Assembly: GCF_003334815.1 (NCBI RefSeq)
Contig: NZ_QOWO01000015.1
Strand: one strand, 5' to 3'
DNA from: Escherichia coli
Lineage (GTDB): Bacteria; Pseudomonadota; Gammaproteobacteria; Enterobacterales; Enterobacteriaceae
DNA: 64,000 nt
The translations under genes and the position numbers were made by a program. This document shows positions 4,430 to 54,302 of the stretch, one piece after another. The notes under the pieces are model-generated. The model saw only the letters and a program-made list of their open reading frames with translations. It made no database searches and was not told where the DNA came from. The stretch's first letter is position 1; every line of letters begins with the position of its first letter.

Positions 4430-5125
4430 ATGTCCATTGCGGTAACCACCACCGATCCGACAAATACCGGCGTCAGTACCACCAGCAGTAGTTCGCTCAC
4501 GGGCAGCAACGCCGCAGATTTACAAAGCAGTTTTCTGACTTTGCTGGTGGCGCAGCTGAAAAACCAGGACCCGACCAATCCAATGGAAAACAACGAGCTG
4601 ACGTCGCAATTGGCACAAATCAGCACGGTCAGCGGGATTGAAAAACTCAATACCACGCTCGGATCTATTTCCGGACAGATTGATAACAGCCAGTCGTTAC
4701 AGGCCAGTAACCTGATCGGTCACGGCGTGATGATCCCCGGCACCACTGTTCTTGCGGGAACCGGCAGTGAAGAAGGGGCTGTGACCACGACCACGCCGTT
4801 TGGTGTTGAGCTGCAACAGGCGGCAGACAAAGTTACGGCCACCATCACCGATAAAAATGGCGCGGTTGTGCGCACCATTGATATTGGTGAACTGACCGCC
4901 GGAGTTCACAGTTTCACCTGGGACGGTACGTTGACTGATGGCAGCACTGCGCCGAACGGTTCTTACAATGTAGCGATTAGCGCCAGTAACGGTGGTACAC
5001 AACTGGTTGCCCAGCCGCTGCAGTTTGCTCTGGTGCAGGGTGTGATCCGCGGCAACAGCGGTAATACGCTGGATCTCGGCACTTACGGCACCACCACCCT
5101 CGACGAAGTACGGCAGATAATTTAA
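4430..5125 (+). CDS. flgD: Flagellar hook capping/assembly protein FlgD, 231 aa
   Basis: 231-aa Thr/Ser-rich ORF with NQDPTNPMENNELTSQLAQISTVSGIEKL motif. Confidence 0.95.
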   Translation: MSIAVTTTDPTNTGVSTTSSSSLTGSNAADLQSSFLTLLVAQLKNQDPTNPMENNELTSQLAQISTVSGIEKLNTTLGSISGQIDNSQSLQASNLIGHGVMIPGTTVLAGTGSEEGAVTTTTPFGVELQQAADKVTATITDKNGAVVRTIDIGELTAGVHSFTWDGTLTDGSTAPNGSYNVAISASNGGTQLVAQPLQFALVQGVIRGNSGNTLDLGTYGTTTLDEVRQII

Positions 5126-47892: not shown

Positions 47893-51141
<3,249 letters not shown>

Positions 51142-51169
51142 AGGCAGTACATTAAAACAAGGAGCGGCA

Positions 51170-52081
51170 ATGTATTACGGGTTTGATATTGGTGGAACAA
51201 AAATTGCGCTTGGCGTGTTTGATAGCGGTTGGCAGTTGCAGTGGGAAAAGCGGGTGCCGACACCGCGTGACAGCTATGACGCATTTTTAGATGCAGTGTG
51301 TGAGCTGGTAGCTGAAGCTGACCAACGTTTTGGCTGTAAAGGTTCTGTCGGCATCGGTATTCCGGGAATGCCGGAAACAGAAGATGGTACGCTGTATGCC
51401 GCCAATGTCCCCGCTGCCAGCGGTAAACCGCTGCGTGCCGACCTGAGCGCACGTCTTGATCGCGATGTACGCCTTGATAACGATGCCAACTGTTTTGCCC
51501 TTTCAGAAGCCTGGGATGATGAATTTACTCAATATCCACTGGTGATGGGGTTGATTCTCGGCACCGGTGTTGGCGGCGGGCTGATTTTCAACGGCAAACC
51601 GATTACCGGTAAAAGCTACATTACCGGCGAGTTTGGCCATATGCGTCTGCCGGTTGATGCGTTAACCATGATGGGGTTGGATTTCCCGTTACGCCGCTGC
51701 GGCTGTGGTCAGCATGGCTGCATTGAAAATTATCTGTCTGGTCGCGGTTTTGCGTGGCTGTATCAACACTATTATCATCAACCGTTGCAGGCTCCCGAAA
51801 TTATTGCGCTTTATGATCAAGGCGATGAGCAGGCAAGGGCGCACGTTGAGCGTTATCTGGATTTATTAGCGGTTTGTCTGGGAAATATCCTGACCATCGT
51901 TGACCCTGACCTGGTCGTCATTGGTGGTGGCTTATCGAATTTCCCGGCAATCACAACGCAACTGGCGGACAGGCTGCCTCGTCATCTCTTACCTGTAGCT
52001 CGTGTTCCGCGCATTGAACGCGCGCGCCACGGTGATGCGGGAGGAATGCGTGGTGCGGCCTTCCTACATCTAACCGATTAA
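51170..52081 (+). CDS. nagK: N-acetyl-D-glucosamine kinase NagK, 303 aa
   Basis: ORF-track frame 51110..52081; ATG 51170 gives [18 protein letters not shown], a ROK-family start. Confidence 0.92.
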
Positions 52082-52096
52082 ACAACAGAGGTTGCT

Positions 52097-52936
52097 ATGC
52101 TGTCGCGTCGGGGTCATCGGTTAAGTCGTTTTCGTAAAAATAAACGCCGCCTGCGCGAGCGTTTGCGTCAGCGTATTTTTTTCAGAGATAAAGTGGTGCC
52201 GGAAGCAATGGAAAAACCAAGAGTACTCGTACTGACAGGGGCAGGAATTTCTGCGGAATCAGGTATTCGTACCTTTCGCGCCGCAGATGGCCTGTGGGAA
52301 GAACATCGGGTTGAAGATGTGGCAACGCCGGAAGGTTTCGATCGCGATCCTGAACTGGTGCAAGCGTTTTATAACGCCCGTCGTCGACAGCTGCAGCAGC
52401 CAGAAATTCAGCCTAACGCCGCGCATCTTGCGCTGGCTAAACTGCAAGACGCCCTCGGCGATCGCTTTTTGCTGGTGACGCAGAATATCGACAACCTGCA
52501 TGAACGCGCAGGTAATACCAATGTGATTCATATGCATGGGGAACTGCTGAAAGTGCGTTGTTCACAAAGTGGTCAGGTTCTCGACTGGACAGGAGACGTT
52601 ACCCCAGAAGATAAATGCCATTGTTGCCAGTTTCCGGCACCCTTGCGCCCGCACGTAGTGTGGTTTGGCGAAATGCCACTCGGCATGGATGAAATTTATA
52701 TGGCGTTGTCGATGGCCGATATTTTCATTGCCATTGGCACATCCGGGCATGTTTATCCGGCGGCTGGGTTTGTTCACGAAGCGAAACTGCATGGCGCGCA
52801 CACCGTGGAACTGAATCTTGAACCGAGTCAGGTTGGTAATGAATTTGCCGAGAAATATTACGGCCCGGCAAGCCAGGTGGTGCCTGAGTTTGTTGAAAAG
52901 TTGCTGAAGGGATTAAAAGCGGGAAGCATTGCCTGA
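52097..52936 (+). CDS. cobB: NAD-dependent protein deacylase CobB (sirtuin), long form 279 aa; internal ATG at 52208 gives the short form
   Basis: 279-aa ORF with Arg/Lys-rich N-terminal extension ([37 protein letters not shown]) preceding [24 protein letters not shown]. Confidence 0.9.
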
Positions 52937-53026
52937 TGCACTACGCTTATCAGGCCTGCAAGGGGACGCAATTAATTGAATTTGCGGGTTTTGTGGGCCG
53001 GATAAGGCGTTCGCGCCCCATCCGGC
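52931..53026. repeat. REP pair (BIME) between cobB and ycfZ
   Basis: GCCTGATGCACTACGCTTATCAGGC and GGGCCGGATAAGGCGTTCGCGCCCCATCCGGC. Confidence 0.8.
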
Positions 53027-53055
53027 ATAATACACGCGCACTTTTCCGGCCTCTT

Positions 53056-53844
53056 TTATCGTTTACTCGTCAATAACAATGCGGCAATAAACGTACAGAC
53101 ACCAATTAGCCCTGCCCAGAGTGGCGATATTCTGGTAATCGCAAAGCTATTATCGATATACAAACATAAAGCCTGATAACCCATATTGGCAATAGTCATC
53201 GCCACTGCAAATTTTAACGCATAAATAAAACGAGTCGTGTAGTAAAAGATCCTGGAAAATAAGATAAACGTCGCAGCCCAGGCGATAAAACCTAATGTGT
53301 TGGTGCTGCCGGGGGGAGCATTTTCATGCTGTTGTCCTGGATGCGGATAATACGTTAGTGGCGGCGTCGATTGTTTTAATATCTGTGCTTGTAGAACAGC
53401 CAATGCATTATTGATTCCCTGATACCAGAGATCTGCATTTAAATAAGCCAGCGTGTGATTTTCTATCAGAAGGCCGAGATGTTTATCGTCCAGACCACTT
53501 TCAACCTGGCCGTTGGTGATCATAATTAACCGTGGTTCGCGGGTAGTAAATAGTAACAGAACACTTCCTTTTACATCACTCAATGAAGATGACGCATGCG
53601 CCAGCATCGCTTTACCATTTTGTCTGAGACTGGCTTCATTATTAATGTCGGGTAAAACCACAATAAACGGTGCAATTCCCGTTTGTTGGCGAAAAAGCTC
53701 GGCTTTATGCGCGATCTCTTCAGCATCTGGTACAGTACCGGTAACGTCCGTAAAAAGTGTCTTCATTATTGGAATTAATGGCTTGCTGGCTGCTGTCAGA
53801 GGCAGGAGTATCAGTAAACTGAGCAGTATAATGAATTTTTTCAT
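53056..53844 (-). CDS. ycfZ: Inner-membrane protein YcfZ, 262 aa
   Basis: 262-aa ORF with signal/TM start [22 protein letters not shown] and C-terminal hydrophobic segments. Confidence 0.85.
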
Positions 53845-54302
53845 GGGCGGGACTTCCGTTTCCTGCGTGATTTTTTAGAGGAGGGCATACTTATTAATAA
53901 ACCGACGGCGATAAAAATAACGCCCATAATGCCGATAAACCCCCATTTAAAAAAATTAACCCACGGGTTATTTATCTCAGCCTTTTCAGGATGCCCGGGA
54001 GAATAATAAACATTAACTTTATCGCCTTCGCTGTCTTCATAAAAATCGCTGCCGATACTCGAATTGAAAATTAGCGTGTAATCTGGCGTCGGTCGAAAGG
54101 CAACGACGGGATACCACGAACCATCTTTACCCGTGCGATGAGAATGACTGGAGTGCCAGACGGTATCAACAATGACGCCTTCGGTATGAATCGCGTCTTT
54201 GCTATAGGTGAACTGGTTATAAAAGACAACAACAGAAATGAGGATCAGTACCAGACCGATACCGAGGAATATACGAAAGAAAACTTTACTGTCCTGACTC
54301 AT
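53841..54302 (-). CDS. ymfA: Inner-membrane protein YmfA, 153 aa
   Basis: ORF-track frame 53841..54311; ATG at 54302 gives [28 protein letters not shown]; ATGA overlap with ycfZ. Confidence 0.85.

Follow-up and report, generated by a model that had tools for sequence, protein, structure and literature searches.

The cobB gene in the 64,000-nucleotide stretch of Escherichia coli DNA analysed here (hereafter, the window) is almost certainly the cobB of E. coli K-12, a known dual-isoform gene from which a long protein, CobB-L, starts at position 52097 and a short protein, CobB-S, at position 52208. This two-isoform finding is correct and is already known from experiments in Salmonella and E. coli. 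Our own additions are modest: a switch from CGN to AGR arginine codons, a constraint on synonymous codon choice, a second minimum of mRNA structure, and a list of lineages without the internal start. The first three of these were not met in the accessible CobB literature.

According to the explanation that we favour, CobB-L (279 aa, 31.5 kDa) would be translated from the ATG at 52097 behind a GAGGT Shine-Dalgarno sequence, on a transcript beginning inside or upstream of nagK, while CobB-S (242 aa, 26.7 kDa), essentially the bare sirtuin core, would be translated from the in-frame ATG at 52208. A separate weak promoter in the first 111 nt of the ORF, as suggested by published deletion constructs, would drive CobB-S, and internal initiation on the long mRNA may add to it. 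The latter contribution is our own proposal, and the relative share of internal promoter and internal initiation is what we infer here. The extension, with a charge of about +12, would in turn give CobB-L its published properties, i.e., polyphosphate binding and inhibition, weaker dsDNA binding, oligomerisation, and N-alpha-acetylation. That both proteins exist, in which regions their promoters lie and what they do biochemically is taken from the literature.

Organisation of the nagK-cobB locus

The cobB ORF spans 52097-52936 on the plus strand (840 nt, 279 aa) and ends with a stop codon at 52934-52936; the features of the region are collected in Table 1. Positions 51900-53000 are 100% identical to E. 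coli K-12 MG1655, in which the RefSeq annotation gives nagK and then cobB, the latter as a "Sir2 family NAD+-dependent deacetylase" whose CDS begins at the upstream ATG. The nagK-cobB stretch was found in all complete E. coli genomes (5426/5426). The first-pass annotation of this DNA, made from the sequence alone, had described a 37-aa arginine-rich N-terminal extension of CobB with a second in-frame start behind it, and this was confirmed, the second ATG being codon 38. Its statement that the upstream start lies 15 nt past the nagK stop is likewise exact (TAA at 52079-52081, spacer at 52082-52096).

Table 1 Features of the nagK-cobB region in window coordinates
Feature	Position	Strand	Basis and remarks
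nagK (N-acetylglucosamine kinase)	51170..52081	+	RefSeq annotation of the identical MG1655 stretch; directly upstream of cobB
Candidate sigma-70 promoter for CobB-L, TTGCGT-17 nt-TATCAT, 8/12	51750..51778	+	Prediction; coincides with BPROM -347/-319
Shine-Dalgarno GAGGT for ATG1	52088..52092	+	Read from the sequence; 4 nt before the ATG
ATG1, CobB-L start (279 aa in K-12)	52097..52099	+	ORF and RefSeq annotation
Extension-coding region, 37 aa, Arg-rich, CobB-L only	52097..52207	+	Residues 1-30 conserved and basic, 31-37 variable linker
BPROM-predicted CobB-S promoter, +51 to +83	52147..52179	+	PMC6209979; -10 TATTTT at 52174-52179
Internal-start initiation region, codons 28-42	52178..52222	+	Low synonymous variation, low predicted mRNA structure
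ATG2, codon 38, CobB-S start (242 aa)	52208..52210	+	Sequence; CobB-S expression published (PMC6209979, PMC12926920)
Sirtuin catalytic core, common to both isoforms	52208..52936	+	PDB coverage, NF001755, AlphaFold

Several further observations concern the borders of the two genes. The mechanical ORF list starts nagK at TTG 51110 (323 aa), and RefSeq starts it at ATG 51170 (303 aa). In K-12, nagK and cobB share a reading frame, in which the nearest stop upstream of cobB is the TAA of nagK. At the other end of the gene, K-12-type CobB is 279 aa long (window 52916-52936), and the proteins of other E. coli, E. albertii and Salmonella end in ...LKGL at 273 aa. A deletion of 1 nt (GGATTATAAAGC to GGATTAAAAGC) abolishes the ancestral TAA, so that the cobB ORF runs on for 6 codons toward the downstream REP region; there, the interval between cobB and ycfZ (52937-53040) holds REP-type palindromic repeats. 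The possibility of a known RNA element overlapping the cobB start region was rejected: the sole match of the Rfam scan of 50000-54000 was naRNA4 (RF02564) at 52996-53033, a REP match downstream of cobB that scored 32.4 bits and thus fell below the gathering threshold of 59.5.

Internal start codon and origin of CobB-S

For the comparative analysis, one genome per bacterial species was scanned with a degenerate DNA pattern encoding K-R-x-L-x-[EQD]-R-L-R-Q-R-x-F-F, which is part of the extension. At least 120 loci were obtained, and 117 among the matches listed are Enterobacteriaceae cobB; the matches L043, L054 and L062 fall in unrelated ORFs and were discarded as chance hits. The signatures of the internal start were directly observed in these sequences. 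As judged from sequence comparison, the internal ATG is functional as a start, with four independent comparative signals in agreement. Of the 110 species among the matches listed, 103 have ATG as codon 38, 2 have GTG and 5 carry a non-start codon, and M38 is 95% conserved within a linker that is 66% conserved. Codons 28-42 vary least at synonymous sites, with a normalised entropy of 0.42 vs 0.75 at core codons 43-120 (Mann-Whitney p = 6e-5). Arginine codons 30, 32 and 42 are AGR in 70/73, 49/50 and 80/83 species, respectively, among the matches listed (the two AGA codons of the initiation region in the window lie at 52184-52186 and 52220-52222). At 10 of the 11 other arginine positions of the extension, CGN is used in at least 98% of the species having Arg, the remaining one being codon 18 with 96%, and the core arginine codons comprise 566 CGN vs 31 AGR.

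The predicted folding energy of the mRNA (40-nt windows, mean of 79 species) showed two minima of about -4 kcal/mol, the first at -20 to 0 relative to ATG1 and the second at +97 to +109, just 5' of ATG2, compared with -10 to -13 kcal/mol in the flanking nagK and cobB coding sequence. A GGTG is located 9 nt upstream of ATG2. Bacterial initiation regions are typically marked by rare A-rich codons and little structure. In the five species with a non-start codon at the M38 position, this codon is ACA in L075 (Raoultella planticola), ACA in L096, CTC in L036, ATA in L038 and GTA in L114; these species may make CobB-L alone or may use a nearby Met or Val codon of the linker. A full-text literature search found no published initiation profiling (retapamulin) for cobB.

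The first-pass annotation had reasoned that any promoter of the short form must sit inside nagK or inside the extension, and had proposed the mapping of transcription starts as a check. Promoter mapping is available in published work in the form of plasmid deletions, which define a separate region for each of the two isoforms and bear the reasoning out (Umehara 2018, PMC6209979). In that study, constructs whose upstream DNA measured 1218 or 417 nt produced CobB-L as well as CobB-S, those with 30 or 0 nt produced CobB-S only, and a construct beginning at the second ATG produced no protein. From these results, the CobB-L promoter was placed at -417 to -30 (window 51680-52067, in nagK) and the CobB-S promoter at +1 to +111 (window 52097-52207, in extension-coding DNA), with BPROM predictions at -347 to -319 and +51 to +83 (PMC6209979).

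The internal promoter was not visible in our scans. The promoter scan gave no plus-strand promoter in 51000-53200, and the relaxed sigma-70 scan of 51650-52215 gave only two distinct candidate sites scoring at least 8/12, both in nagK and none within 52097-52207. At the position of the BPROM -10 hexamer, GATCTT is the commonest sequence, 71 of 89 species match TATAAT at no more than 3/6, and no synonymous preference for a TATAAT-like sequence was found across genera. Because the scans failed and the -10 is unconserved, the CobB-S promoter is not locatable by sequence. In addition, an earlier reporter study, as cited in PMC6209979, saw no significant promoter activity for the region from -400 to +151 of cobB, which leaves the plasmid constructs as the only footing of the internal promoter. 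As a separate observation, a sigma-54 motif (GTGGAACAAAAATTGCG, 51192-51208, plus strand, in the sense direction toward cobB) lies just inside the nagK 5' end and is the intragenic ChIP-seq site IS12 (PMC4591121).

A question raised by these findings is whether a single nagK-cobB mRNA gives rise to both proteins, with CobB-S made mainly by internal initiation at 52208 and with no physiologically relevant internal promoter. The lack of a promoter-like site in 52097-52207, the unconserved BPROM -10 and the cited reporter result are in line with this reading, as are the AGR codons, the low structure and the GGTG at ATG2, which are translational signals and work on any mRNA. We nevertheless consider it unlikely, although it deserves to be taken seriously, since the plasmids with 30 or 0 nt of upstream DNA make CobB-S only while the construct beginning at ATG2 makes nothing (PMC6209979), a pattern that speaks for a promoter within +1 to +111. 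A review also reports two transcription start sites for Salmonella cobB (PMC8603916). We therefore keep the separate weak promoter for CobB-S in our preferred explanation, with internal initiation as a possible supplement.

That both proteins exist is documented in published work. The first-pass annotation had suggested a Western blot of tagged CobB, and blots of this kind detected CobB-L and CobB-S of E. coli (PMC6209979); an anti-CobB Western blot of MG1655 also revealed endogenous species of 31.5 and 26.7 kDa (PMC12926920, NAR 2026). The masses that we computed for CobB-L (31.46 kDa) and CobB-S (26.72 kDa) agree with these two species. The view that two isoforms are encodable therefore holds, with both starts supported by the comparative data and both proteins published (PMC6209979, PMC12926920).

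These data also weigh on the idea that only the long CobB is encoded, in which case M38 would be an ordinary methionine and the short species would stem from proteolysis or be an artefact of the plasmids. An Arg-rich N-terminus that is predicted at low confidence and appears flexible would be protease-sensitive, and Erwiniaceae as well as 5 of the 110 Enterobacteriaceae species among the matches listed do without the internal start. However, M38 is conserved in an otherwise poorly conserved linker, and codons 28-42 show synonymous constraint, the CGN-to-AGR switch and the structure minimum at ATG2; moreover, constructs without the upstream promoter make only CobB-S (PMC6209979), and the endogenous CobB-S is detected in MG1655 (PMC12926920). 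We thus regard this idea as very improbable and retain the internal ATG as the start of CobB-S.

Arginine-rich extension as a part of CobB-L

The extension evolves as a protein. It is kept in at least 117 Enterobacteriaceae loci, and in the 86 ungapped species among the matches listed, the average conservation of the protein sequence is 88% over residues 1-30 and 66% over the linker (residues 31-37). In the same 86 species, positions 1 and 2 of arginine codons 4, 5, 8, 11, 13, 17, 20, 22, 24 and 26 are fixed; the entropy of the extension's arginine codons among the matches listed is about 0 at positions 1 and 2 and 1.1-1.7 bits at position 3. Fixed first and second codon positions with a free third position are a classical mark of protein-level selection. 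In addition, the consensus of 85 species among the matches listed keeps a GAGG(T) Shine-Dalgarno sequence 4-5 nt upstream of ATG1. The codon-position pattern and the conserved Shine-Dalgarno sequence indicate that the long form is a real, selected protein.

Some loci depart from the usual gene structure. Shortly past the extension, the cobB ORF stops in L033 (Kluyvera genomosp. 3, ORF 4869-5078, 69 codons) and in L103 (ORF 559-750, 63 codons); a frameshift, pseudogene formation or faulty assembly could account for these short ORFs. In L017, L021, L035, L036, L052, L072, L090, L101 and L114, the cobB frame is open for about 20 codons upstream of ATG1 and contains an extra ATG in the nagK 3' end, giving ORFs of 293-296 aa.

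In its composition, the extension differs strongly from the rest of the protein. The first-pass annotation had counted 14 Arg/Lys among the 37 residues; the actual number is 15 (12 R and 3 K), plus 1 His. The net charge of the extension is about +11.6 (pI ~12), compared with about -10.5 for the 242-aa core, which contains 8.7% R/K, so that the pI of the protein rises from 5.4 (acidic) to 7.8 (slightly basic) with the extension. Its Arg/Lys richness is beyond chance: the open frames of 150 or more codons in the 64-kb window together yield 21,517 windows of 37 aa, of which no more than 16 contain at least 15 R/K, and 13 of these overlap the cobB extension. The remaining 3 R/K-rich windows lie at 15009-15125 on the minus strand, and no other stretch reaches 15/37; this second region resembles the Arg-rich RNA-binding segment of RNase E.

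The family and structure data separate the extension from a canonical sirtuin core. The window protein matches the NCBIfam equivalog NF001755 with 599.8 bits (cut-off 318), and protein residues 1-275 align with profile positions 1-275 of 278; because the alignment starts at residue 1, the extension belongs to the curated family model. Pfam PF02146 is precomputed for the near-identical protein P0001 and for all listed homologues. In an alignment of 128 sequences, G48, N130, D132 and G148 are invariant and A49-G56, Q129, H135, H147, C155, C174 and C177 are at least 90% conserved; all of them are present in the window protein, which hence carries the conserved NAD-binding motif, the QNIDxLH motif, the catalytic His and the zinc-module Cys. 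The first-pass annotation had set the beginning of the sirtuin core at ATG 52208. The solved E. coli CobB chains 1S5P and 6RXJ, to which the window protein is identical, support this, since they cover residues 39/40-279 only and the fold thus begins at the internal Met.

The AlphaFold2 prediction (based on the 128-sequence alignment) gave a core with pLDDT >90 from residue 41, a single helix for residues 2-28 with pLDDT ~50-55, and a coil for residues 29-42. The low confidence of the helix and the lack of packing on the core suggest a flexible, undocked appendage, and the 37-residue extension is probably flexible and helical according to this model. Hydrophobic residues recur at extension positions 9, 12, 19, 23 and 27. 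Special amphipathicity of the helix was nonetheless not supported, as the hydrophobic moment of the best 18-mer (0.45) was reached by 1153 of 2000 shuffles.

The notion that only the short CobB is real, the upstream ATG being an over-extended call and the 37 codons an untranslated leader, has next to no chance of being right: crystal structures and most bacterial sirtuins do start at about residue 39-42, but the extension is under protein-level selection in the 86 species among the matches listed, has a homologue in Erwiniaceae, follows a conserved Shine-Dalgarno sequence and is included in the NCBIfam equivalog, and the 31.5-kDa species is detected in vivo (PMC6209979, PMC12926920).

Distribution and significance of the two isoforms

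The same arrangement is found in Salmonella enterica, in which CobB-L and CobB-S likewise involve a 37-residue Arg-rich extension, an in-frame Met at the border and nagK (ycfX) directly upstream; 32 of the 37 extension residues of E. coli are identical in S. enterica subsp. diarizonae. In 2010, two active Salmonella isoforms were described, CobB-S with 236 aa and CobB-L with 273 aa (Tucker and Escalante-Semerena, J Bacteriol 192:6200, as cited in PMC8603916 and PMC10965786). The K-12 proteins have 242 and 279 aa instead, because the 1-nt deletion removes the ancestral stop, and the border carries two adjacent Met codons in Salmonella (M37, M38) but one in E. coli. The published E. coli CobB-L and CobB-S come from the same gene with the same sequence (+1 = 52097, +112 = 52208), with no difference from the window.

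In Erwiniaceae (Pantoea, Erwinia), CobB has a homologous extension that is likewise Arg-rich (MRTPRRRLRLARYKKNRRKVHQRFRQRIFERDR). In contrast to E. coli, they would have the long form only: a Met near the core border is absent in 101 of 120 Erwiniaceae sequences, so that only one isoform is encodable where it is missing. This agrees with the mention of Erwinia as an exception in PMC8603916. Together with the five non-start species among the 110 Enterobacteriaceae, the Erwiniaceae show that the short isoform is not universal. On the present sequence comparison, the internal start belongs to the Enterobacteriaceae, and a few of their species have lost or replaced it.

Among the best 150 representatives of 50%-identity clusters, the extension occurs in one clearly separate lineage (P0121, plus the fragment P0139), and the other carriers are fragments or near-identical Enterobacteriaceae sequences. 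The proteins P0121 and P0272 are 60% identical to E. coli CobB, their nearest named relatives are Pantoea and Erwinia proteins (~65% identical), and their cobB directly follows lolE, with nagK absent between them. The other sirtuins among these 150 representatives align from query residue ~40 to their own residues 2-15, and the other N-terminal extensions of distant sirtuins lack basic character and show no sequence relationship to that of CobB. This survey points to the extension as a speciality of Enterobacteriaceae and Erwiniaceae.

One ORF with two in-frame starts is also known from IF2 alpha/beta and ClpB 95/80, whose short products do not have an activity-modulating N-terminal module. 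The cobB gene differs from these pairs in its reported additional internal promoter and in the nature of the module, which is a short polyanion-binding peptide in CobB and a folded domain in IF2 and ClpB.

The biochemical consequences of the extension are known from published work. Polyphosphate (KD 48.8 nM) and dsDNA (KD 6.4 uM) are bound by CobB-L only (PMC12926920). With DnaK as the substrate, polyphosphate inhibits CobB-L only, whereas with DnaA it inhibits deacetylation by both isoforms, which the authors credit to DnaA's own polyphosphate binding (PMC12926920). In Salmonella, CobB-L oligomerises via its N-terminal domain (PMC10965786). N-alpha-acetylation by YiaC/NatB lowers CobB-L activity (Parks and Escalante-Semerena 2020, as cited in PMC8603916 and PMC12299546), and one paper reports that c-di-GMP inhibits the long isoform.

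It is conceivable, though quite doubtful in our view, that the features of codons 28-42 (rare AGA/AGG at codons 30, 32 and 42, synonymous constraint and a structure-free window) form a control point at which the CobB-L:CobB-S ratio is tuned. Either argU-dependent AGA codons would slow the ribosomes that translate the long form, or elongating and initiating ribosomes would compete. A separate proposal, to which we give equally little credence, is that the Arg-rich peptide binds RNA; if it does so in the manner of phage N or Rev-type arginine-rich motifs, CobB-L would be directed to ribosomes or the nucleoid. We met neither idea in the accessible CobB literature. It is more economical to read the codon 28-42 features as usual start-site traits, namely low structure and rare codons.

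This locus can serve genome scans as a positive control, as a reading of the sequence alone recovered an experimentally verified alternative-start gene. The comparative signatures, i.e., the conserved Met in a variable linker, the synonymous constraint, the codon switch and the structure dip, would have confirmed it even without experiments. The two-isoform finding itself brings no new biology. CobB is described as the sole or single sirtuin deacetylase of E. coli (PMC12926920 among other sources) and affects metabolism, chemotaxis, transcription factors and DnaA. Overall, the identity of the isoform matters, since polyphosphate and DNA binding, oligomerisation and control by N-terminal acetylation belong to the long form only, while most structural work (1S5P, 6RXJ) and much of the biochemistry used the short core.
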